Under the pieces are notes generated by a model that had not been told where the DNA came from, ran no database searches, and was given only the letters and a program-made list of their open reading frames with translations. Positions 4,436 to 42,207 of a DNA stretch of 64,000 nt are shown here, piece after piece (position 1 is the stretch's first letter; every line of letters starts with the position of its first letter). The stretch is from Candidatus Sungiibacteriota bacterium. Lineage in GTDB: Bacteria; Patescibacteriota; Minisyncoccia; Sungbacterales; HO2-52-23. Made by a program: the position numbers and the translations under genes. The stretch lies in assembly GCA_016432465.1 (NCBI GenBank), contig CP066690.1, positions 683,666 to 747,665 on the forward strand. The letters run 5' to 3'.

Positions 4436-5689
4436 GTGAACCTTGATAGCTATAATCAGGAAGAAACACGCAAAGAGTACTCTGACCCCAGAGATGATGT
4501 CGGCCGCTACCTAGATGAAATCGGACTAATACCGATGCTCAAGGGTCGGGAAGCAGAAAAGGAGTTGAGTGAGGAGATCGAAAAAGCCAGGCGCAGTATT
4601 TGGCGGCTGATTCGGCATATTCCCCTTATTACCGAAACAAAAAATAACGTAGGGGTTTCAACGGGTGACCTGCCGCGTCTTGTAAAGAAGTTACATCGGC
4701 GTCTCCAAAAGATGGAACGGCTGGTAGAAGAAAGCGCCTCTTTGTCTCCGGGCCAAAAACGCAGCGCTTTAAGGCGCGAGAAACAACGTCTCGAAAAAGA
4801 AGTCGGCATCTCTCATCGGAAGTTAAGAAGTATCTTTAAAAAAATTAATGCCTTTGAAGCTCAAGCCCTTTCGGCGAGGAACAGGTTGGTAGAGGCCAAC
4901 TTGCGGTTGGTGGTTTCTATTGCGCGTGGGTATAGGTCTCCCGGGCTTACTTTGGGTGACTTGATTCAAGAAGGCAACACCGGTCTTATGAGGGCTGCAG
5001 CCAAATTTGATGCCTCTATGGGGTTTAAATTTTCAACCTATGCCACGCCTTGGATAGAACAAGGCATCAGAAGGGGCATTGAAAATCAGGGACGGTTAAT
5101 CCGTCTTCCGGCTTACGTACAGAGCAACTTTACGCATTTACGGAAGCTTCAGCGTTCTTTGCTGGGTAAGTACGGACGCCTACCAGATGAAGAAAAGCTT
5201 CGTGCTTTTGTCCGGGCCTCCGATCGTGGGGTTAAAGACCGAAGTTTATCCGGTCTTATTCCTTCCTTCTTTATACACGAAAACAGTCTCTTATCGCTTG
5301 ATCGTGAGTTGGGGAAAGAGGGAGAAGAAAGAGTCACTAAGTTGTCTGATTTGTTTGAGGACGAATCGATCGCCTCTCCCGAAGATCAGGTTGCAGCCAA
5401 AGAATTTACGGCGAAAATGTTAACGCGGCTTGAAGGACGCGATGGTTTTTATGAACGTATGGCCGAAGTCATACGTTTGCGTTTTGGGGTTGATGGTGTG
5501 GAGCGTCCTCACACTCTTGATGAAGTTGGCAAGATTTTGGGTGTTTCCCGGGAGCGGGTAAGACAGATCGAGGAGAGGACGCTTCGTAAACTTAGCATAT
5601 ATGCCAAACAGCTTATGAGGATAAATCTTAGGCCGGCACAAAGTGGTGTAAACGGAAAAGTCTTTGGGTCCACAGCCCATAGAAATTAA
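4436..5689 (+). CDS. rpoD: RNA polymerase sigma factor, sigma-70 family (primary sigma, RpoD-like), GTG start
   Basis: Regions 1.2, 2.1-2.4 (DLIQEGNTGLMRAAAKFD, FSTYATPWI), 3 and 4.2 (TLDEVGKILGVSRERVRQIE). RBS AAGGAGGA at 4420-4427. Confidence 0.9.
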   Translation: MNLDSYNQEETRKEYSDPRDDVGRYLDEIGLIPMLKGREAEKELSEEIEKARRSIWRLIRHIPLITETKNNVGVSTGDLPRLVKKLHRRLQKMERLVEESASLSPGQKRSALRREKQRLEKEVGISHRKLRSIFKKINAFEAQALSARNRLVEANLRLVVSIARGYRSPGLTLGDLIQEGNTGLMRAAAKFDASMGFKFSTYATPWIEQGIRRGIENQGRLIRLPAYVQSNFTHLRKLQRSLLGKYGRLPDEEKLRAFVRASDRGVKDRSLSGLIPSFFIHENSLLSLDRELGKEGEERVTKLSDLFEDESIASPEDQVAAKEFTAKMLTRLEGRDGFYERMAEVIRLRFGVDGVERPHTLDEVGKILGVSRERVRQIEERTLRKLSIYAKQLMRINLRPAQSGVNGKVFGSTAHRN

Positions 5690-33046: not shown

Positions 33047-33244
33047 GTGGCTTTTCAAGATCAAAGAGGTGGATTTCAGGATGATCGTCCTAAGTACGAC
33101 ATCACCTGTTCCAAGTGCGGAGCAGCCTCTACAGTACCCTTCCCGCCAACTGCGGGACGCGATGTCTACTGTAAGGACTGTTTCCGTGAGATGAGACCGC
33201 CCCGTCGTGACTTTCACGGCGGTGGAGGATTCCGACCTCGATAA
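33047..33244 (+). CDS. small zinc-ribbon protein (CxxC-x17-CxxC)
   Basis: CSKC...CKDC. Confidence 0.5.
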   Translation: MAFQDQRGGFQDDRPKYDITCSKCGAASTVPFPPTAGRDVYCKDCFREMRPPRRDFHGGGGFRPR

Positions 33245-33315: not shown

Positions 33316-33585
33316 ATGGTAAATTCACTTGTAAGCTGCAAAAAATGCGGCCATACTCTCTATACAAATCGGGAAAAAGAGCAAGGCCTTTGTGAAAACT
33401 GTTCACGTCAGACTGCGGGAAAATGTGTGAGGTGCGGCGTACCGTTAGTAACAACCGGCAGGTCTGGAGGAGAATTTTGTAGTCGTTGTCGGACTCTAGA
33501 AGCAAACTGTATGAAATGCGGTTTAAGGTTATATACTCCGCAGGAGCGAAAAAGCGGAGTATGTGTACGTTGCAGCAGAAAATAA
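33316..33585 (+). CDS. double zinc-ribbon protein (four CxxC pairs)
   Basis: CKKC, CENC, CVRC, CSRC, CMKC, CVRC. Confidence 0.5.
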   Translation: MVNSLVSCKKCGHTLYTNREKEQGLCENCSRQTAGKCVRCGVPLVTTGRSGGEFCSRCRTLEANCMKCGLRLYTPQERKSGVCVRCSRK

Positions 33586-33587
33586 AT

Positions 33588-34811
33588 ATGCAAAAATATG
33601 ACTATTTAATTATTGGTGGCGGGATTGCGGGTGTGACTGCTGCAGAGACTATCCGGGAACGCGCGCCTGATTCTTCCATCGGACTGATTTGCGATGAGTC
33701 GTATCCTTTGTATTCACGAGTAATGCTCCCGGGGTATCTCAAAAAAAAGATCTCGCGCGAGCAGCTTTTTTTGCGGCAGGTGGACGATTTTACTTCCAAG
33801 CGCATTGACCTTCGTCTTAAAGAAGAAGCAGCCTATGTTGATGTAAAAAGAAAGGAGGTGGGTCTGGCTAATCGTATAGTTCTTAGCTACGAGAAACTGC
33901 TTATTGCGAGCGGCGGCAATACACTGGACTGGGGAAGGCCGGAAGAACAAGGGTTTATTTATCGTCTGCAGACCCTGGATGATGCGGATAAACTATTTCA
34001 AAAACTTGAGACTATCCGTCAGCCAATAGTGATAGGAGCCTCGTTTATCAGTTTGGAATTTCTTGAAATTTTTGTAACCAACAGTATCCAGCCCCTGCTT
34101 CTTGTACGTACCCCACACTTTTTTTCGCGTATTTTTGATTATACCGGAGGAGAAATACTGCATGACAATTTTGAACGCCACGGCATAAAAATACAATTTA
34201 ATGACGAGATTGCGGAAATAACAAAACACAACACCGCGTTTTCGGTTCAAACCAAGGGTCTACGCATATTGGAGAGCGACGCCCTAGCGCTTGGATTAGG
34301 AATTAAACGCAATATGGAGTTTATCCGTGGCTCCGGAGTGGAGCTAGGAGAGCAGGGGGTACGCACCAATGAGTATTTGGAGACAAGTATAACTGATGTT
34401 TGGGCAGCAGGAGATGTAGCCGAATTTTACGATGTTATTTTAGGGGAGCACCACGCTATGGGTAATTGGACTAACGCTTTTTTGCAGGGGCAAAGAGTGG
34501 GACTCAATATGACTGGAGAGCGTGAGCCTTTTAAAAAAGTTTCCAGTTATTCCATAACCAATTTGGGATTTCAGATAACGGCATTAGGCAATTGCAACGA
34601 TGGCCGCGATACTATTGTGCGTGTGGATAAAATTAAAAATCAATATGAAAGGTTTTTCCTGCGTGACGGCATTTTGGTTGGGGCGGCGCTTATTAATCGT
34701 TTTCAGGACAAATCTCACCTGGCTAAATTCATTGAGGCCAAAGTATCTATGGAGTCGTATCGCGATAAGCTGACCGATTTTGGATTTGACATAACGGCAA
34801 TACCAGCCTAA
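33588..34811 (+). CDS. FAD/NAD(P)-dependent pyridine nucleotide-disulfide-family oxidoreductase
   Basis: GxGxxG (IIGGGIAG), a second Rossmann motif and GD motif (AAGDVAE). The start is taken at the internal Met (MQKYDYLIIGGG). Confidence 0.7.
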   Translation: MQKYDYLIIGGGIAGVTAAETIRERAPDSSIGLICDESYPLYSRVMLPGYLKKKISREQLFLRQVDDFTSKRIDLRLKEEAAYVDVKRKEVGLANRIVLSYEKLLIASGGNTLDWGRPEEQGFIYRLQTLDDADKLFQKLETIRQPIVIGASFISLEFLEIFVTNSIQPLLLVRTPHFFSRIFDYTGGEILHDNFERHGIKIQFNDEIAEITKHNTAFSVQTKGLRILESDALALGLGIKRNMEFIRGSGVELGEQGVRTNEYLETSITDVWAAGDVAEFYDVILGEHHAMGNWTNAFLQGQRVGLNMTGEREPFKKVSSYSITNLGFQITALGNCNDGRDTIVRVDKIKNQYERFFLRDGILVGAALINRFQDKSHLAKFIEAKVSMESYRDKLTDFGFDITAIPA

Positions 34812-34821
34812 TATAGTCTTT

Positions 34822-35574
34822 ATGGAGGAAGATACTAAAATAGAAACCGAGGATATCAAAAACGCCGGAGCGCATTCGGCACCAAATCCATATCTAGTTC
34901 CTGCCGCGATCGTCATTGCCGGACTTTTAATAGCCGGAGCAGTATTTTACACCAACTCTCCAAAAACTCCGGCAGCCAATCGTCAAACAGCAGCAGCGGG
35001 GGAGCCGGCCATATCAGCGACCGGAGATCTAGCGGATGACGATCCGGTATTAGGCAACCCGGAAGCTTTGGTTACCGTGATAGAATTTAGTGACTTTCAA
35101 TGCCCTTTTTGTCGGCGTTTTTTCCGCGATACTTTATCCCAGCTTAAGGACAAATACATAAAAACCGGCAAAGTGCGTTTTGTTTATAGGGACTTTCCTC
35201 TTACGGGGATTCACGACATGGCCCAAAAATACGCGGAAGCGGCAGAGTGCGCGGATGAACAGGGGAAATTCTGGCAGATGCATGACAAAATTTTTGAGGA
35301 GCAGGATAAACGCGGGGTGGCAACGGTGTTTGATATTACCGTGGCTGACATTAAGCAGTGGGCTCGTGGGGTCGGTCTTAACGGCGCGGCGTTTGATGGT
35401 TGTCTTGACTCGGATAAATATTTTGAAGAAGTGCAAAAAGATTTTCGCGATGGTCAGGCGAATGGCGTAAACGGCACTCCGGGCACATTTGTCAACGGCC
35501 GCCTGATTCAGGGCGCAGTGCCTTTTGAGCAGTTTGCATCCGTGATTGAACAGGAACTTGGGCGGGCAAAATAG
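34822..35574 (+). CDS. DsbA-like thiol:disulfide oxidoreductase, membrane-anchored
   Basis: N-terminal TM segment. CPFC active site within a thioredoxin fold. Confidence 0.7.
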   Translation: MEEDTKIETEDIKNAGAHSAPNPYLVPAAIVIAGLLIAGAVFYTNSPKTPAANRQTAAAGEPAISATGDLADDDPVLGNPEALVTVIEFSDFQCPFCRRFFRDTLSQLKDKYIKTGKVRFVYRDFPLTGIHDMAQKYAEAAECADEQGKFWQMHDKIFEEQDKRGVATVFDITVADIKQWARGVGLNGAAFDGCLDSDKYFEEVQKDFRDGQANGVNGTPGTFVNGRLIQGAVPFEQFASVIEQELGRAK

Positions 35575-35645
35575 TATTTAGCTGTGGAAAAGCGGCTCTT
35601 GACAAGCCGTTTTCTCGGGAGTATACTTATTATTATTGAACAACT

Positions 35646-35951
35646 ATGACAACAAAAGAAGTTAAAGTAACCGATTTGTCAAGAAGACTGGCTCTTTTTA
35701 GCGATCCGGTCAGGTTACGGCTTTTCTTGTTCTTGTTTTCCTCTGGCGAGAAGGATCTTTGCGTCTCGGATATTGCGGCCTACCTTAAGAGTTCGCTTTC
35801 CAATACCTCGCACCAGCTAAGAAAACTGGAACTGGCCGGTTTTGCAAGACCAGTGCGCCATGGCCGTATGATATGCTATCAGTCCATCAAGACGGATACC
35901 AATAAATTATTATATACTTATCTTACACGTTTAATGAGGCGCGGATTGTAG
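35646..35951 (+). CDS. ArsR/SmtB-family metalloregulatory transcriptional repressor
   Basis: Winged HTH with the LCVSDIAAYL metal-site region. Confidence 0.7.
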   Translation: MTTKEVKVTDLSRRLALFSDPVRLRLFLFLFSSGEKDLCVSDIAAYLKSSLSNTSHQLRKLELAGFARPVRHGRMICYQSIKTDTNKLLYTYLTRLMRRGL

Positions 35952-35989: not shown

Positions 35990-36238
35990 ATGCGTGCGTT
36001 ATCTATGGCCCAAGTAAAAATATACACAACTCCCACTTGCGTTTATTGCAAGATGACCAAGGAGTTTTTTAAGCAAAACAATATACAGTATGAGGAGAAA
36101 AACGTAGCTACTGACGCTGTGGCTCGCGATGAGATGATTCAAAAATCCGGCCAGATGGGAGTGCCGGTGGTTGAAATTGATGGAAAAATTATCATTGGTT
36201 TTGACCAGCCGCATCTTAAAGAGGCCCTTGGTATTTAA
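35990..36238 (+). CDS. glutaredoxin/NrdH-like redoxin
   Basis: CVYC active site and Grx fold (GVPVVEIDGK). Confidence 0.7.
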   Translation: MRALSMAQVKIYTTPTCVYCKMTKEFFKQNNIQYEEKNVATDAVARDEMIQKSGQMGVPVVEIDGKIIIGFDQPHLKEALGI

Positions 36239-37257
36239 TGAACAAGGTCACGTTTATTGCTATATTTTTGGCCGCATTGTTGGTGGGATTTTTAGGATAT
36301 CAATTATTTTTTAGACCACAGGTTAAATTACCCAAAGGGGAGCCGCGTGAAGAAAAAATTATGATCGAAGAAGGCAAGGAACAAAACATTTTAGTTACCG
36401 ACGGAGTTAAGCATTCTATTCCGCTAAACGAAATTATTTCTGGCGGCCCGCCCAAAGACGGCATCCCTTCCGTTGATAACCCCAAGTTTATGGCCGTTTC
36501 AGAAGCCAATGGCTGGCTTAAAGATGCAGAACCCGGTCTTGCTTTTTCGCGCGGTAACACGCACCGGTTCTATCCGTATCAAATTTTGGTGTGGCATGAG
36601 ATTGTTAACGATTCAATCGAAGGTGAACGTATTTTGGTGACATACTGCCCCCTTTGTCTAAGCGGATTTGTCTTTGACCCGGTAGTGAAGGGCGAGCGGG
36701 TTGAGTTTGGAACTTCGGGCAAACTCTGGAAATCTAACCTCGTTATGTACGACAGGAAAACCGATTCGCTTTGGTCGCAAATTTTGGGCGAAGCAATTGT
36801 GGGCGAGATGACCGGCATCAAGCTAAAACTGCTTGAGTCCGATTTACTGCGCTATGGGGATTGGAAAAAGAAATTTCCCCAAGGACAGGTGATGTCGCGC
36901 GATACCGGCGCCACAAGATTTTACGGGTCCAGTCCTTATGGCGACTATTTTTCCCCGGTTGATTTTGCTATCGGCCTTACCGGTTCCCGCGATGCCCGTC
37001 TCTCACCCGAAGCATTTATCTTTGGGATTGTGATAAATGAAAAAGCAAAGGCCTATCTGGTTGATGCCGTTAAAAGTAAAGGCGAGGTTGAGGACGATTT
37101 TCAGGGGGTAAAAATTATTTTACGCCACGATAAAGAGTTAGACGTGGTACGAATGTTTAAAAAAACACCAGACGGCCGGGAAGAGCGTATAAATCCTTTC
37201 AGCGCTTTCTGGTTTTCCTGGTCAGCCGTCCACCCGGCGACTGACTTATATAAATAA
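36238..37257 (+). CDS. DUF3179-family protein, membrane-anchored
   Basis: YCPLC and YDRKTDSLWSQ..GEA..G blocks. Confidence 0.6.
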   Translation: MNKVTFIAIFLAALLVGFLGYQLFFRPQVKLPKGEPREEKIMIEEGKEQNILVTDGVKHSIPLNEIISGGPPKDGIPSVDNPKFMAVSEANGWLKDAEPGLAFSRGNTHRFYPYQILVWHEIVNDSIEGERILVTYCPLCLSGFVFDPVVKGERVEFGTSGKLWKSNLVMYDRKTDSLWSQILGEAIVGEMTGIKLKLLESDLLRYGDWKKKFPQGQVMSRDTGATRFYGSSPYGDYFSPVDFAIGLTGSRDARLSPEAFIFGIVINEKAKAYLVDAVKSKGEVEDDFQGVKIILRHDKELDVVRMFKKTPDGREERINPFSAFWFSWSAVHPATDLYK

Positions 37258-37297
37258 GGGTTGGTCGTTATTATTAAAATAAATTTATATTACAATT

Positions 37298-37474
37298 ATG
37301 GATGATCACCATCAAAATAAATGTATGGCTTGTTCTTGTCCTTGCGACATGCATAAAGAGCATACCCACCACGAAGAGGATCACAATATGGACCACGAAG
37401 AAGGCCACGAGAAAGGAGGGTGTATGGCTTGTTCTTGTCCTTGCGACGAGCACAAAGAGCATAACCACGAATAG
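37298..37474 (+). CDS. Cys/His-rich metal-binding peptide (58 aa) with a duplicated CMACSCPCD motif. Metallothionein-like
   Basis: Hand translation MDDHHQNKCMACSCPCDMHKEHTHHEEDHNMDHEEGHEKGGCMACSCPCDEHKEHNHE. Below the ORF-track cutoff. Confidence 0.55.
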   Translation: MDDHHQNKCMACSCPCDMHKEHTHHEEDHNMDHEEGHEKGGCMACSCPCDEHKEHNHE

Positions 37475-37497
37475 TTCGTGGTTATGCTTGCCCGAAC

Positions 37498-38025
37498 ATG
37501 AGCACTAAAAACATTATTTTTCTGGTAGTTGTTATTTTGGCGGCTGCGGGACTCGCGGGTTTATTTCTGGTACAGCGGGGCGTAATCAATCCGCCCTCTC
37601 CGCAAACCAATAAGGCCGCCCCTGAATTTAGTTTTAACGATTACAACGGAAAGGAAGTAAAGCTTTCCGATTTTCGCGGAAAGCCGATATTGGTAAATGC
37701 TTGGGCCGCTTGGTGCCCGTTTTGTCGCGAGGAGCTGTCTGATTTTGCCAAAGTTAAAGAAGAGTTTGGCGGTAAATTTGAAGTTATTGCTATTGACCGC
37801 GCCGAACCGCTTGAGGTTGCCAAACGCTACTCGGACCAGCTCGGAGTTACGGAAAAGTTCGTTTTTCTTCTTGATCCGGCGGACTCCTTTTATCAGTCCA
37901 TAGGCGGTTTTTCTATGCCCGAGACGATTTTTGTGGATAAAGACGGCAAAACTGTTTTTCACAAGCGGGGTCCTATGAAGCAAGAAGAAATACGACGCAG
38001 AATACAGGAAAATTTTAATTTATAG
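37498..38025 (+). CDS. TlpA/ResA-like thioredoxin-fold thiol:disulfide oxidoreductase, membrane-anchored
   Basis: WCPFC active site. Confidence 0.7.
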   Translation: MSTKNIIFLVVVILAAAGLAGLFLVQRGVINPPSPQTNKAAPEFSFNDYNGKEVKLSDFRGKPILVNAWAAWCPFCREELSDFAKVKEEFGGKFEVIAIDRAEPLEVAKRYSDQLGVTEKFVFLLDPADSFYQSIGGFSMPETIFVDKDGKTVFHKRGPMKQEEIRRRIQENFNL

Positions 38026-38033
38026 TTATATTT

Positions 38034-38867
38034 ATGGATTTATCTCTCGTTATTCCGGCATTTATTGCTGGTATCCTGACATTTTTAGCTCCCTGCACCT
38101 TGCCTTTGGTGCCGGGTTATTTGGGCTTTATCAGCGGGGCCTCGCTGGAGGACTTAAAAGACCCGATGAAGGCGTCCACGGCCCGTCGTAAAATTTTTCG
38201 GAACGGTTTATTTTTTATTCTTGGATTTAGCGCCGTCTTTATTATTATGGGTACGTTAGTTGGATTTGTCGGAGCCTCTCTGCTTGCCCCTTACAGATTT
38301 TGGTTATCAAGAATTGGCGGCGTATTTGTTATTCTTTTCGGTCTTTTTATGCTTCACCCCGTTAGAAATCCGCCCCGCTTCTTAAGCGCGGCGGCAGCCG
38401 TCTTGGGGCGGCTTATTTCTAACGGGGTGAATGTTTTAAAAATTTCGTTTCTTGTTCGGGAAAAACAACTTAAGGCGCCGGGCGCATTGGAAAGAGGAAA
38501 GTCGCTAACTTCTTTTATATTAGGTTCGGCTTTTGCTTTTGGTTGGACTCCTTGCGTGGGGCCCATTCTTGGGTCCATTCTTCTTCTTGCTTCAACTTCA
38601 ACCACTGCGTTTCAGGGGTCTTTGCTTTTGGCTGTTTTTTCCGCAGGTCTTGCGGTTCCGTTTCTTCTGGTGGCACTGGGTATTGGTTCGGCCGCGAAAT
38701 TCATTTCCAAAATTTCTAAGTTTTTGAGCGTGGTATCTGTTATCGGCGGCCTTCTGCTTATTTTCTTGGGTATATTATTGCTTACGGGCAATATGGCCCT
38801 TCTGATTTCTTGGGGCTACCGTCTATTTCAATTCATCAACTATGAAAGGTTATTGGATTACTTATGA
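38034..38867 (+). CDS. ccdA: cytochrome c-type biogenesis/disulfide transporter CcdA (DsbD family)
   Basis: TM Cys pair (LAPCTLPLVP..., WTPCVGPILGSIL). A 71-nt palindromic insertion lies at 38357-38427. Confidence 0.75.
   Translation: MDLSLVIPAFIAGILTFLAPCTLPLVPGYLGFISGASLEDLKDPMKASTARRKIFRNGLFFILGFSAVFIIMGTLVGFVGASLLAPYRFWLSRIGGVFVILFGLFMLHPVRNPPRFLSAAAAVLGRLISNGVNVLKISFLVREKQLKAPGALERGKSLTSFILGSAFAFGWTPCVGPILGSILLLASTSTTAFQGSLLLAVFSAGLAVPFLLVALGIGSAAKFISKISKFLSVVSVIGGLLLIFLGILLLTGNMALLISWGYRLFQFINYERLLDYL
38357..38427 (+). repeat. CCCCGTTAGAAAT / ATTTCTAACGGGG palindromic element inserted within the ccdA coding sequence
   Basis: Arms at 38357-38369 and 38415-38427, with a nested CCGCCCC/GGGGCGG pair inside. 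Confidence 0.5.
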
Positions 38868-38927: not shown

Positions 38928-39518
38928 ATGGCAAAAAGATACGGACAATCGGTGAGCAATAAGACCTTGATTATAGGAGCGGTGATCATTTTCGCCGGAC
39001 TTATGATTTTTGTTGGTTTTTATAACAGGAATTCCCCTGCGGCTTCCGGAGGAGGCGTTCGTGGCAGTCAAAGTTCGCCCGGAAGTTATCAGGCGGCCGC
39101 GAGCGGCGGTGTTACATCAAAAAATCTTGCCCCCGATTTCACTTTATCAAAACTTGACGGGGGAACGATAAGTCTTGCCGAATTTCGCGGGAAAAAGCCG
39201 GTAGTTGTTGATTTTTGGGCTTCGTGGTGCCCCAATTGCCGCCGCGATATGTCAAATCTCAACCGCTTTTATGAAAACTATAAAGACCGGCTGGAGGTTA
39301 TCGCCGTAAATTTGCAGGAGTCTGAAGGAACGGTAAGGAATTTTATTGAGTCGCGCGGGTTTTCCTTTCCCGTAGCGCTTGACCCCTACGGCGGAGCTGG
39401 TCAGGCCTTTGGCATCCGCTACACCAATACCCACTTTCTTATTGATAAAAACGGGAAAATAGTTCGCGAAATACCGGGCGACATACGCGAAGCGGACTTT
39501 TTGTCGCTCCTGCAGTAA
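38928..39518 (+). CDS. TlpA-like thioredoxin-fold oxidoreductase 2, membrane-anchored
   Basis: WCPNC active site. Confidence 0.7.
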   Translation: MAKRYGQSVSNKTLIIGAVIIFAGLMIFVGFYNRNSPAASGGGVRGSQSSPGSYQAAASGGVTSKNLAPDFTLSKLDGGTISLAEFRGKKPVVVDFWASWCPNCRRDMSNLNRFYENYKDRLEVIAVNLQESEGTVRNFIESRGFSFPVALDPYGGAGQAFGIRYTNTHFLIDKNGKIVREIPGDIREADFLSLLQ

Positions 39519-39534: not shown

Positions 39535-39924
39535 ATGAATCAAGTCGCCAAAAATATACTGACAAGATTAACCCCGGTCTTGGGGGCTGGTGCGGTCGGT
39601 GCGTGCCCGCTCTGTTGGATTGGTTCCGCGTCCCTCCTTACCTATCTTGGACTGGGCGCGCTAATTTCGGTGTGGCGATTGATGGCTTTTGTTTTACTTG
39701 GTATGAGCCTCATTGGTTTTATGTTTGATTATCGCTCCCATAAAAATCTGTCTCCCCTGCTATTTCTTGTGGTAGGCGGCATATTACTTTATCTCGGTCG
39801 GTACGTTTTTGGCGGAGCAGGCTTTGGCGGCTGGCAGATTTGGGGTCCGGGAGCAGTCCTTGTGCTTGCCGCGGTTATTTATAACAGACAACAATTTTAT
39901 AAAAAAAGGACACGAATATTATGA
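39535..39924 (+). CDS. small 4-TM membrane protein with an intramembrane CPLC motif (MerT/MerF-like thiol transporter?)
   Basis: GACPLCW in TM1. It lies immediately upstream of the MerA-like gene. Confidence 0.35.
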   Translation: MNQVAKNILTRLTPVLGAGAVGACPLCWIGSASLLTYLGLGALISVWRLMAFVLLGMSLIGFMFDYRSHKNLSPLLFLVVGGILLYLGRYVFGGAGFGGWQIWGPGAVLVLAAVIYNRQQFYKKRTRIL

Positions 39925-41390
39925 ACAAGTTTGATTACCAATTCATTATCATCGGAGGCGGCGCGGCTGGTTTTGCGGCAGCCATTAAGGCAGATTCTCT
40001 GAAGATTAAAACTTTAATGATATCGGGCGGCAAAGTGCCCTTGGGCGGCACCTGTATTAATGTCGGCTGTATGCCGTCAAAACGATTGCTTACCGCCGCA
40101 GAAGCCTATTGGAATGCCAAAAACAGCAAATTTGATGGAGTAAAAAGCGCCGCGCCGGAATTAAGTTTTGAAGAAGTCATAAAGTCAAAAGACGCTCTTA
40201 TCAACAAACTTCAGAGCAAGGCATATGCCGGCACTCTCAAATTTTTGGTTTATGTCACTCTCAAAGAGGGAGACCCCGAAGGAGTCGCTCCGCGACCCTA
40301 CGGGGCAGGCGCGAAATTTATTGATGAACACACAATCGAAGTAAATGGCGAGAAAATAACCGGAGAAAAGTTCCTTATCTCAACTGGTTCTTCCACATTC
40401 ATCCCGCCGATTTCTGGATTAATTAATGTAGATTATTTAACCAACATAGAAGCCTTGAGCTTAAAAGAATTGCCTAAATCAATGGTTATTTTAGGCGGCG
40501 GTCCTTTGGGGCTTGAATTCTCCCAGATTTACAATCGTTTCGGCACAAAAGTGACCGTTTTGCAGTCAGCGGACAGAATCGCTGATCGCGAAGAGCCGGA
40601 GTTATCAAACTTTCTGCAAAAGAAATTAGAAGAGGAGGGAATTACAATTCACACTTCCGCCCAAACAAAAAGCGTTAGTCGGCATGACGGTCTTATCGAG
40701 GTTCAAGCAGATGTGCGCGGTAAAGAAGTAATAATCAAGGCGGAAAAAATATTGGTAGCAACCGGAGTAAGAGCTAATACCCAACCTTTGAACCTCGAAA
40801 GCATCGGCGTCGGCATCGGTAAAAAAGGAGGAGTAGTAACCAACGAATTTTTGCAGACAGACCTTCCCCACGTATTCGCGGCCGGTGATGTTGTAGATCA
40901 GTATGGGGACGAAATTAATCCCAAATTAGAGACAACTGCCGGAAGAGAGGGTTTTGTTGCCGCGTCCAACCTTCTTGAAAATAAGGGTCTCAAAATGGAT
41001 TTTCGCTCAACTCCGCATGCTATTTTCACTGACCCGCCGCTCGTCAGCGTCGGCCTTACCGATGCCCAAGTCGTCAAGCAAAGCGGGCTTACCTGCAGCT
41101 GCCGCACCCTGAGCCTGGAGCTTGTTCCAAAAGCGCACATTTTGGAAGCGGCAGACGGCTTAATTAAAATGGCAATAGACGCCAAAACAGAGGAAGTTGT
41201 CGGTATTCACATGGCGGGAGCAAGAGCGGAAGAAGTTATTTCAATGGCAAGTTTTATCATCAAAAACAGAATGAAGCTGGACGATATTATTGAGAATACT
41301 TTTATTTTCCCGACTATGGCCGAATCAATTAAATGGGTCGCCCAATCCTTCAGGAAAGATGTCAGCAAGCTTTCCTGCTGTACGGAATAA
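39921..41390 (+). CDS. merA: mercuric reductase-like pyridine nucleotide-disulfide oxidoreductase (MerA core without the NmerA domain)
   Basis: GGTCINVGCMPSK redox-active disulfide and the C-terminal Cys pair (..KLSCCTE) typical of MerA. Confidence 0.6.
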   Translation: MNKFDYQFIIIGGGAAGFAAAIKADSLKIKTLMISGGKVPLGGTCINVGCMPSKRLLTAAEAYWNAKNSKFDGVKSAAPELSFEEVIKSKDALINKLQSKAYAGTLKFLVYVTLKEGDPEGVAPRPYGAGAKFIDEHTIEVNGEKITGEKFLISTGSSTFIPPISGLINVDYLTNIEALSLKELPKSMVILGGGPLGLEFSQIYNRFGTKVTVLQSADRIADREEPELSNFLQKKLEEEGITIHTSAQTKSVSRHDGLIEVQADVRGKEVIIKAEKILVATGVRANTQPLNLESIGVGIGKKGGVVTNEFLQTDLPHVFAAGDVVDQYGDEINPKLETTAGREGFVAASNLLENKGLKMDFRSTPHAIFTDPPLVSVGLTDAQVVKQSGLTCSCRTLSLELVPKAHILEAADGLIKMAIDAKTEEVVGIHMAGARAEEVISMASFIIKNRMKLDDIIENTFIFPTMAESIKWVAQSFRKDVSKLSCCTE

Positions 41391-41397
41391 ATATGAA

Positions 41398-41526
41398 CCC
41401 CGTTAGAAGTCTTGGGCAGAAAAATTTTATGAAAATTTTTCTGCGTGTATATCGCGGGAATTATCAAAATAACCATGAAAAACAACAACATAACACAAAG
41501 TGAGGACGCTCCGACTTCTAACGGGG
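41398..41526 (+). repeat. CCCCGTTAGAAGTC / GACTTCTAACGGGG palindromic element spanning the 5' end of the downstream redoxin gene
   Basis: Arms at 41398-41411 and 41513-41526. Confidence 0.5.
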
Positions 41527-41954
41527 TGAAAGCCCCGGAATTTATAACCGAAAATGAACAATGGCTCAATTCAGAGCCGCCGAAGATCGCTGATTTAAAA
41601 GGCAAGGTGGTTTTAATTAAATTTTGGACTTTTATGTGCTCTTGGTGCCAGCAGGATTTGCCGGGCATTATGGAGATTGAAAAGAAATACAAAGACAAGG
41701 GGTTGGTGGTAATCGGCATCCATTCCCCGGAAACAACTTTTGAGCGCGACGTAGAAGCATTAAAGAAACAAATGAAAGTTTTGAAAGTGGACTTTCCGGT
41801 TCTTACCGATAACGCAAGACAAAATTGGAAAGCATACAAAGTAGAAAACTGGCCGGCGTATTATTTAATTGACCGTGAAGGAAACATTGCTTTTAGCATT
41901 CTTGGTCCGGGAGTCGAGGACCAATTAGAAAATAAAATTAAAAATTTAATATAA
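41475..41954 (+). CDS. thioredoxin-fold redoxin (AhpC/TSA/TlpA-like)
   Basis: CSWC active site. The start is uncertain (41445 or 41475). Confidence 0.6.
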   Translation: MKNNNITQSEDAPTSNGVKAPEFITENEQWLNSEPPKIADLKGKVVLIKFWTFMCSWCQQDLPGIMEIEKKYKDKGLVVIGIHSPETTFERDVEALKKQMKVLKVDFPVLTDNARQNWKAYKVENWPAYYLIDREGNIAFSILGPGVEDQLENKIKNLI

Positions 41955-41958
41955 ATTT

Positions 41959-42207
41959 ATGGAACAAACGAATCACAAAATAACAATTTACGGTACATCC
42001 ACTTGTCAGTCATGCGCTCTCGCGAAAGAATATCTTCATTCTAAGAATTTTGAGTATGAATTTAAAAATGTCGGCGAGGACGCCGTGGCGCGGGAGGAGA
42101 TGATCGCCAAAAACGGCGGCATGCTTAGCACGCCAACAATTGAAATAGACGACAAAATTATTGTTGGTTTTGACAAGGGAAAAATAGACGCTCTTTTGGG
42201 AAATTAA
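41959..42207 (+). CDS. glutaredoxin/NrdH-like redoxin 2
   Basis: CQSC active site. Paralog of the protein at 35990-36238. Confidence 0.7.
   Translation: MEQTNHKITIYGTSTCQSCALAKEYLHSKNFEYEFKNVGEDAVAREEMIAKNGGMLSTPTIEIDDKIIVGFDKGKIDALLGN

Follow-up and report, generated by a model that had tools for sequence, protein, structure and literature searches.

A Cys/His-rich mini-protein family of Patescibacteria, possibly metal-binding, with a fixed place in a thiol-redox island

In Synechococcus, the ArsR-family regulator SmtB and the metallothionein SmtA provide a precedent for the combination of a regulator with a small Cys/His protein. A gene of this general kind is described here from a 64,000-nucleotide (nt) stretch of the genome of a Candidatus Sungiibacteriota bacterium (assembly GCA_016432465.1, contig CP066690.1, positions 683,666 to 747,665 of the forward strand), hereafter called the window. 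The Sungiibacteriota are a phylum of the Parcubacteria group within the Patescibacteria, or candidate phyla radiation (CPR), organisms with tiny genomes in which a large share of the genes lack a known function. The gene codes for a Cys/His-rich protein of 58 amino acids (aa) that contains two copies of a 16-residue module with four Cys and three His (C4H3). The 58-codon frame is a real gene under strong purifying selection. Small Cys/His-rich metal-binding proteins under an ArsR-family regulator are known already, but we found no description, in the libraries or the searchable literature, of this sequence family with its 16-residue C4H3 module, of its confinement to Patescibacteria, or of the constant position that it occupies in an island of thiol-redox and mer genes. 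We favor, with confidence only slightly above even, the interpretation that the protein acts on thiophilic metals in the cytoplasm, in the manner of a metallothionein or metallochaperone. The protein is easily missed under cut-offs on open reading frame (ORF) size, and it is a strongly conserved part of a thiol-redox and toxic-metal island, of a kind with few examples in the CPR. Should metal binding be confirmed, the few bacterial metallothionein-like proteins would be joined by a new sequence family, and there would be a hint at how MerA enzymes that lack the NmerA domain obtain Hg(II). It is also short enough for chemical synthesis and hence approachable, though its hosts are uncultured.

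The best described relatives in terms of function would be SmtA and BmtA (PF02069), which like the new protein are about 55 aa long and cytoplasmic, combine Cys with His ligands, have an ArsR/SmtB-family gene in their locus, and are presumed to buffer metal. SmtA, however, is a single domain that holds a Zn4Cys9His2 cluster in a zinc-finger-like fold with aromatic residues, whereas the new family uses one to three 16-aa C4H3 modules, and the window protein is 21% His and free of aromatics. Moreover, smtB and smtA form a divergent pair, whereas the gene described here lies inside a multi-gene thiol-redox operon, and there is no sequence relationship: PF02069 was matched neither by the window protein (E <= 0.01) nor by 65 family members (E <= 1). 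Hpn and Hpn-2 of Helicobacter pylori are also tiny, cytoplasmic, and His-rich, with few Cys and with acidic stretches of the 'HHEE' type, but Hpn has His runs and CC pairs, lacks a conserved module, and belongs to a nickel, urease, and hydrogenase context. No homologues outside the CPR family, Hpn included, were retrieved from 1.84 billion representative proteins. The Cu(I)-thiolate motifs of Mac1 and Ace1, as well as Cup1 and MymT, share with the new protein the dense CxC and CxxC motifs with His, the duplication (REP-I and REP-II in Mac1), and small size or lack of structure until metal is bound. In contrast to it, they are parts of transcription factors or are eukaryotic or actinobacterial metallothioneins; the Mac1 spacing CxCx4CxCx2Cx2H differs from the Cx2CxCxCx2Hx2HxH of the module, and no homology was detected. 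A further parallel is offered by NmerA and MerP, small soluble Cys-bearing proteins encoded together with a Mer transporter and MerA. NmerA passes its Hg(II) on to the two Cys at the C-terminus of MerA. Both have a single CxxC within a GMTCxxC motif and a beta-alpha-beta-beta-alpha-beta fold, unlike the window protein with its eight Cys and 12 His and no such fold; the HMA profile PF00403 matched neither this protein nor any of the 65 family members. The metallothionein-like or metallochaperone function proposed in the original prediction, which had been made from the DNA letters alone, still is the best reading, but the protein belongs to no described metallothionein or HMA family. With respect to the hallmarks of metallothioneins, it has a low mass and no aromatics, and its CxC and CxxC motifs come with a Cys content of 14%, less than in the classical members, to which His contributes another 21%.

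The gene extends on the plus strand from the ATG at 37298 to the TAG at 37472-37474 (Table 1). Its translation, MDDHHQNKCMACSCPCDMHKEHTHHEEDHNMDHEEGHEKGGCMACSCPCDEHKEHNHE, is exactly the one derived by hand in the original prediction, and the Cys/His richness stated there agrees with the composition count of 8 Cys (8/58 residues), 12 His, 15 Asp/Glu, 4 Lys/Arg, 0 F/W/Y, and 0 I/L/V. It had been regarded as unannotated, but GenBank already lists the identical, uncharacterised protein as 'hypothetical protein HYW89_03975 [Candidatus Sungiibacteriota bacterium]'. Eight residues precede the first module, and a His/Glu/Asp-rich linker separates it from the second. Both copies have the form CMACSCPCD(M/E)HKEH(T/N)H, so that the duplication first noticed as a nine-residue motif comprises two 16-aa modules, which are also 48-nt DNA repeats of 92% identity whose starts lie 99 nt apart. 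The proportion of synonymous differences (pS) between copies within one gene is 0.14 in the window and 0.9-1.3 in the homologous loci L001, L002, L003, L006, and L007. Because the copies are nearly alike in the window but synonymous-saturated elsewhere, they were recently converted (homogenised) or re-duplicated inside the gene in the window lineage.

The substitution pattern carries the case for a protein-coding gene. According to the Nei-Gojobori method, the proportion of nonsynonymous differences (pN) among 13 module copies from 7 loci is 0.08, compared with a saturated pS of ~1.0. In a larger set of 39 module copies from 30 loci, frame +1 shows 83% aa identity at 74% nt identity, while the other five frames reach 39-65%, and the variability at codon positions 1/2/3 amounts to 0.07/0.10/0.44. 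The dominance of synonymous substitutions that had been predicted for homologous loci was thus found, and the frame proved to be conserved in them, although a lack of such conservation had been named as the outcome that would speak against the gene. In 25 of the 30 loci frame -3 contains no stop codon, but its protein identity is 39% and it was rejected as an antisense gene; that it is open is a by-product of codon composition. No Shine-Dalgarno (SD) sequence was seen 5' of the ATG in the window. This is no objection to the gene, because only 9 of 50 long plus-strand ORFs of the window have an SD-like 4-mer and because the homologues in Daviesbacteria carry GGAGGTG 8-12 nt 5' of their start.

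The family is restricted to Patescibacteria. A single-sequence search found 12 further homologues beyond the identical protein, and a profile search retrieved 105 clusters with lengths of 42-88 aa (median 58), which belong to the CPR/Patescibacteria wherever a name is given. An exhaustive HMMER search of the 1.84 billion representative proteins yielded 22 matches, all of them small proteins save P0107 (445 aa), which was discarded as an unrelated repetitive protein; fusions of the family to larger domains were not found in this search. A species-level scan with one genome each detected 23 loci among 185,579 species. Most of their names are those of Patescibacteria lineages, including some Saccharibacteria, which also belong to the CPR, and the labels of two as Gammaproteobacteria may reflect binning or labelling errors.

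The consensus of the core module is C-[MLV]-A-C-[SEK]-C-P-C-[DE]-x-H-K-E-H-[TN]-H. When 65 members are aligned, C9, A11, C12, C14, P15, C16, H19, and H22 are invariant and K20, E21, and H24 nearly so. Conservation extends to residues that are not potential ligands: among 123 module copies, the P is kept in 122, the K in 116, and the E in 117. Ninety members have one core copy, 15 have two as in the window, and one has three. Averaged over 106 members, Cys makes up 14% of the sequence, His 9.5%, and aromatic residues 0.7%. Short, variable, charged linkers join the modules, the one in the window being unusually long and His-rich. The core is combined with accessory modules, which comprise zinc-knuckle-like CxxCG...CxCGC and CxxCG...CC types, namely a C-terminal 'KxCxxCGHEHKxDGxCDCGCK' and an N-terminal 'FVCKSCGSESxGxxGTCCGAEREEKKE', a further module 'MSCGSCGTDAPHG', and a C-terminal C2H2-like 'CSKCGLKAKSxxEMEEHGKAHQ', which in P0046 matches PF13894 (zf-C2H2_4) with E = 2.4e-5. 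The peptides of Daviesbacteria carry such a C2H2-like module at their C-terminus.

None of the libraries recognizes the core module. Pfam (E <= 0.01) and NCBIfam scans of the window protein gave nothing significant, and a Pfam scan of the 65 members at E <= 1 left the core unmatched, with scattered sub-threshold zinc-finger and Fe-S matches in the accessory modules; Pfam contains no zinc-finger or ribbon profile that covers the core. PDB sequence searches with the profile and with two members of other architecture also left the core unmatched, and the only resemblance was that of a generic 'K-x-[FY]-V-C-x-x-C-G' knuckle in an accessory module to PRDM9 fingers. An AlphaFold2 model from a 16-sequence alignment has no stable fold (predicted local distance difference test, pLDDT, 60; predicted template modelling score, pTM, 0.35), as would be expected of a fold that depends on metal. 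A literature search that included bacterial metallothioneins and small proteins of the CPR found nothing on this peptide family or its Cys/His module.

In the proposed function as a metal buffer or chaperone, the small, acidic apo-protein would be largely unfolded, and each module would wrap at least one thiophilic or borderline ion, such as Zn(II), Cu(I), Cd(II), or Hg(II), by thiolate and imidazole ligands. The protein might then buffer or sequester cytoplasmic metal, or hand it to a partner such as a MerA without NmerA. It would be made from an operon controlled by the ArsR-family regulator, whose further products CcdA, TlpA, and other redoxins may hold extracytoplasmic thiols in the reduced state; in the window genome, the MerC-like protein would import Hg(II) and MerA would reduce it. 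We infer the metal binding, the identity of the metal, the control by the ArsR-family protein, and the hand-off to MerA from sequence and gene context, and the cytoplasmic location because no family member has a signal peptide or transmembrane (TM) segment. In favor of this function are the dense invariant Cys/His ligands in CxxC, CxC, and HxxHxH motifs with almost no aromatics, the arrangement of one to three ligand-rich modules on charged linkers and their fusion to modules of zinc-binding type, and the presence of an ArsR-family gene and of merC-like and merA genes in the same island. As the bound metal, Hg(II) or Cu(I) would fit the CxC/CxxC arrays and the mer genes, and Zn(II) or Ni(II) the HxxHxH triad and the zinc-finger-type modules.

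Several observations weigh against a metal-binding role. The Cys content is below that of classical metallothioneins, and the fixed P, K, and E, none of which is a ligand, point to a defined structure or to contacts with a partner more than to a loose chelator. In the window, the gene has neither a metal efflux ATPase nor an HMA chaperone next to it. Within 6 kb of the peptide gene in the 29 loci other than the window, which is the basis of all neighbor counts given here, the tightest associations are those with thiol-disulfide island genes: DUF3179 (22 loci), TlpA (21), CcdA (21), and a dual-specificity-phosphatase-like protein (PTP; 19). MerA-like flavoproteins, the class-I flavoprotein disulfide reductases, occur in only nine, mostly downstream of the peptide gene, and four of them lack the Hg-binding CC tail. 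Finally, a regulator with two Cys could equally be a sensor of oxidants or persulfides. Taken with the linkage to thiol-disulfide oxidoreductases, the conserved P, K, and E leave redox or adaptor roles open.

The first of these roles would be that of a redox-active thiol protein, either a cytoplasmic dithiol carrier or buffer that is reduced by a neighboring NAD(P)H-dependent flavoprotein disulfide reductase or a glutaredoxin and may feed CcdA/TlpA, or a zinc redox switch. Every module indeed contains a CxxC, thiol-disulfide oxidoreductases surround the gene in nearly all loci, and in the Daviesbacteria loci L010 (6192) and L012 (1983) the end of the peptide gene shares 4 nt with the GTG start of a gene for a class-I flavoprotein disulfide reductase other than MerA, which suggests translational coupling. 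Thiol chemistry alone, however, leaves the invariant His triad and the C2H2-like and zinc-knuckle-like modules unexplained. The protein has no thioredoxin fold and no predicted fold at all, and the island already encodes two glutaredoxin-like proteins as cytoplasmic dithiol carriers. A redox carrier is unlikely, though it survives best among the alternatives.

Next in order, and also improbable, is a structural zinc-finger micro-protein, in which the metal would be a structural cofactor and the protein an adaptor or regulator that binds a partner protein or nucleic acid. This would account for the strong conservation of the non-ligand residues, and the accessory modules look like zinc knuckles, zinc ribbons, and a C2H2 finger. 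The CPxCG zinc-finger micro-proteins of archaea and bacteria are similar to the new family in their size of 40-90 aa, their CxxC knuckles, and their mostly hypothetical status. They have two separated knuckles that form one zinc ribbon around a hydrophobic mini-core, however, whereas the modules described here place four Cys within eight residues beside HxxHxH, which is atypical of a single tetrahedral site, and are repeated from one to three times and freely shuffled. Hydrophobic residues are essentially absent, so there is no core, and the linkers are of uneven length, with many His, Glu, and Asp residues.

A regulatory upstream ORF (uORF), whose translation would control tlpA-ccdA through a hairpin at the stop codon, by translational coupling or by attenuation in response to Cys/His supply or metal, is quite improbable as the main function, because it is the protein sequence that is under selection. 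The RNA signals at the end of the gene are nevertheless conspicuous. The perfect 14-bp hairpin has its 5' arm in the last codons, (E)HNHE, and the TAG stop in its loop, and its non-coding 3' arm stops 9 nt before the tlpA-like ATG. It folds with a free energy (dG) of -25.3 kcal/mol (z -4.76), and none of 200 shuffled sequences folds as well. The core module is the end of the gene in 14 loci, and 9 of these have an equivalent hairpin (window, L001, L006, L011, L016, L017, L018, L020, and L029). The 3' arm follows whichever synonymous codons and terminal residues are used in its own 5' arm (own-versus-other permutation, p = 0.015), as exemplified by the arm pairs CATAACCACGAA/TTCGTGGTTATG in the window and GAGCACACCCAC/GTGGGTGTGCTC in L020. 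L002 (4990-5035) and L003 (2395-2440) have a different, longer GC-rich hairpin that buries the tlpA start codon, since its 3' arm contains the tlpA-like ATG, and the inner stem shows compensatory changes between the two loci. In a genome poor in SD sequences, access to start codons may rest on local RNA structure. Against a uORF stands the conservation of the amino-acid sequence itself (pN/pS ~0.08), not merely of the codon content. In addition, the downstream gene differs among loci, many loci lack the hairpin, and a search around the window hairpin revealed neither a U-tract nor an alternative terminator/antiterminator pairing. The missing U-tract also speaks against an intrinsic terminator on the plus strand, and an Rfam scan around the peptide gene gave no match. 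The stop-codon hairpin could instead be a processing or stability element, a terminator without U-tract, or a coupler of tlpA translation to that of the peptide; it may couple or limit the expression of the downstream tlpA. A secondary regulatory role alongside the protein function could be accommodated.

Very improbable is an Fe-S or rubredoxin-like electron carrier for an island flavoprotein. It would be in line with the Cys-rich motifs, with weak matches of three members to an Fe-S binding domain (E = 0.011), and with the position of the rubredoxin-reductase-like flavoprotein at the head of the island in the window, L002, L008, and L009. This flavoprotein, however, occurs in only 3 of the 29 other loci and has a zinc-ribbon/rubredoxin-like ORF of its own next to it (33316-33585 in the window; a 50-aa zinc-ribbon ORF at 889-1041 just before the flavoprotein in L002), and the window protein lacks both the spacing and the aromatic core of rubredoxins or ferredoxins and has no Pfam match. 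A precursor of a ribosomally synthesized and post-translationally modified peptide (RiPP) with repeated core peptides is extremely unlikely: small size, Cys richness, a conserved repeated core, and a very weak sactipeptide match (TIGR04067, E = 0.35) agree with it, but this match, at 11 bits, is far below its cutoff of 45, there is no leader peptide, the stretch before the first module having only 8-10 residues, and the 13 island genes and conserved neighbors include no radical-SAM, YcaO, lanthipeptide, MNIO (DUF692), peptidase, or ABC exporter gene.

The island in the window (Table 1) is a metal and redox island in which the DUF3179 and TlpA-like genes flank the peptide gene, as the original prediction had placed it. 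The stop of the MerC-like gene overlaps the start of merA (ATGA), which lies ~2.4 kb downstream of the peptide gene. The identification of MerA is solid, judging from its profile score, and these two genes (39535-41390) give this Sungiibacteriota genome, from their sequences, a compact mer module; the occurrence of MerA in the CPR is already documented (PMC8261052). The MerA of the window consists of the core only and lacks the N-terminal HMA domain, NmerA, so that a function of the NmerA type is vacant. These features allow a more specific scenario, which is tentative and, taken as a whole, unlikely: the C4H3 module would be a new metal-binding domain confined to Patescibacteria, the proteins that carry it would be cytoplasmic Hg(II)/Cu(I) acceptors in a defence island resembling mer and Scs systems, the metal would pass from the MerC-like protein to the peptide and on to the core-only MerA, the peptide would replace NmerA/HMA, and the expression of TlpA and CcdA would be coupled through the stop-codon hairpin. 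The ScsABCD proteins of Salmonella, Proteus, and Caulobacter similarly combine a DsbD/CcdA reductase with TlpA- and DsbA-like proteins and are associated with tolerance of a thiophilic metal, copper. They have no cytoplasmic Cys/His mini-protein, however, and ScsA is a membrane protein, whereas the CPR island adds ArsR, glutaredoxins, DUF3179, PTP, and in some cases merC-like and merA genes.

Table 1. Positions of the peptide gene, its sequence elements, and the island genes in the window; all island genes are on the plus strand.
Feature	Position	Strand	Basis or remark
Small Cys-rich ORF, 89 aa, repeated CxxC, zinc-ribbon type	33316-33585	+	directly before flavoprotein
Rubredoxin-reductase-like flavoprotein (Pyr_redox_2 + Rubredoxin_C), island head	33486/33588-34811	+	library match
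DsbA-like oxidoreductase, membrane-anchored, CPFC	34822-35574	+	library match
Sigma-70-like promoter TTGACA-17-TATACT	35599-35627	+	11/12 matches; 5' of ArsR-family gene
ArsR/SmtB-family regulator	35646-35951	+	HTH_5; NF033788 50.9 bits, cutoff 55
Glutaredoxin-like protein, CVYC	35990-36238	+	library match
DUF3179 protein, N-terminal membrane anchor, CPLC	36238-37257	+	E = 6e-80
AAGGGTTGGTCG, diverged version of the 'AAAGGTCGA' motif	37256-37267	+	alignment of upstream regions
Coding sequence of the 58-aa Cys/His-rich mini-protein	37298-37474	+	translation, homologues, purifying selection seen in frame +1 alone
Module copy 1, CMACSCPCDMHKEHTH, residues 9-24	37322-37369	+	direct repeat D1
Module copy 2, CMACSCPCDEHKEHNH, residues 42-57	37421-37468	+	direct repeat D1; 4/48 nt differ from copy 1
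Perfect 14-bp RNA hairpin	37458-37488	+	inverted repeat I1
TlpA/ResA-like thiol-disulfide oxidoreductase, membrane-anchored, CPFC	37498-38025	+	library match
CcdA/DsbD-type transmembrane electron transporter (DsbD_TM)	38034-38867	+	library match
Second redoxin, membrane-anchored, AhpC-TSA/Redoxin family, CPNC	38928-39518	+	library match
MerC-like 3-TM membrane protein, CPLC in TM1	39535-39924	+	PF03203 20.5 bits, below gathering score 27.6
MerA, core only, CINVGC active site, C-terminal CC pair	39921-41390	+	TIGR02053 488.5 bits, cutoff 454.45
Third redoxin, CSWC	41445-41954	+	island tail
Second glutaredoxin-like protein, CQSC	41959-42207	+	island tail

The homologous loci share the order ArsR, glutaredoxin, DUF3179, peptide, TlpA-like redoxin, (PTP), CcdA, and apart from one PTP and one flavoprotein match the neighbors run in the same direction as the peptide gene. 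DUF3179 is the most constant upstream neighbor (upstream in 20 of its loci), and the TlpA-like redoxin is found downstream without exception, as CcdA (DsbD_TM) and PTP mostly are. The upstream side further includes glutaredoxin (16 of 29 loci), ArsR (13-16), and DoxX (8). The gene directly after the peptide gene varies and can be tlpA, merC-like, DUF3105, flavoprotein, glutaredoxin, or ccdA. Most of the 29 loci show neither a MerA nor a MerC-like gene. A MerC-like protein is present in six, downstream in five of them and immediately after the peptide in at least L004, L023, and L027; the L004 homologue scores 25.2 bits with PF03203. The 'KLSCC' tail of the window MerA recurs in L001, L025, and L014. 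The MerA homologue of L002 has a similar identity (42%) and a C-terminus that runs off the contig end, and in the flavoproteins of Daviesbacteria and L017 the CC tail is missing or not scorable. The flavoprotein of L010 and L012 has a CLNRGC site but no C-terminal CC pair and was rejected as a MerA. L010 also contains an unrelated 52-aa Cys/His-rich ORF (4618-4776; MSHGPHHNCLMCS…DCDCEAH…) upstream of the thioredoxin and small redox proteins that precede the peptide gene.

The ArsR-family regulator reached no NCBIfam equivalog cutoff. In 17 aligned homologues two Cys are invariant, one in LCV[ST]D of helix alpha-3, where CVS or CVT replaces the classical CVC, and one in GxM[IV]CY of the wing. 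With these two Cys, the regulators would be thiol-based sensors. The promoter 5' of this gene likely is the start of an operon that includes the peptide gene. Closer to the latter, a 'AAAGGTCGA' motif is found ~35-45 nt 5' of the peptide ATG in most Parcubacteria-type loci, right after the stop of whichever gene is upstream (DUF3179, DoxX, or other) and followed by a ~30-nt A/T-rich spacer. Its AAGGTCG part occurs 6 times in the window compared with 7.6 expected occurrences, and was therefore rejected as a general signal of the genome. As it is not enriched in the window, the motif is a candidate promoter or operator element specific to the region upstream of the peptide gene across loci.

At the head of the island, the presence of the small ORF at 33316-33585 indicates that the flavoprotein probably starts near the ATG at 33588 (MQKYDYLIIGGG) and not at the TTG at 33486. 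The best match of the adjacent DsbA-like protein is NF041057 (Rcas_1661 family, thioredoxin-like (seleno)lipoproteins; 146.9 bits, cutoff 190). DUF3179 is mentioned in two reviews of prokaryotic selenoproteins (PMC9312934, PMC13188914). If both families have selenoprotein members, this would indicate redox-active sites. A 65-aa ORF at 33047-33244 on the plus strand combines a zinc-ribbon motif of the form CxxC...CxxC with a tail rich in Gly and Arg (…CSKCGAAS…YCKDCF…GGGGFRPR). In the window as a whole, the plus strand carries 50 of the 54 ORFs that reach 150 aa, and the GC skew is positive over its entire length.

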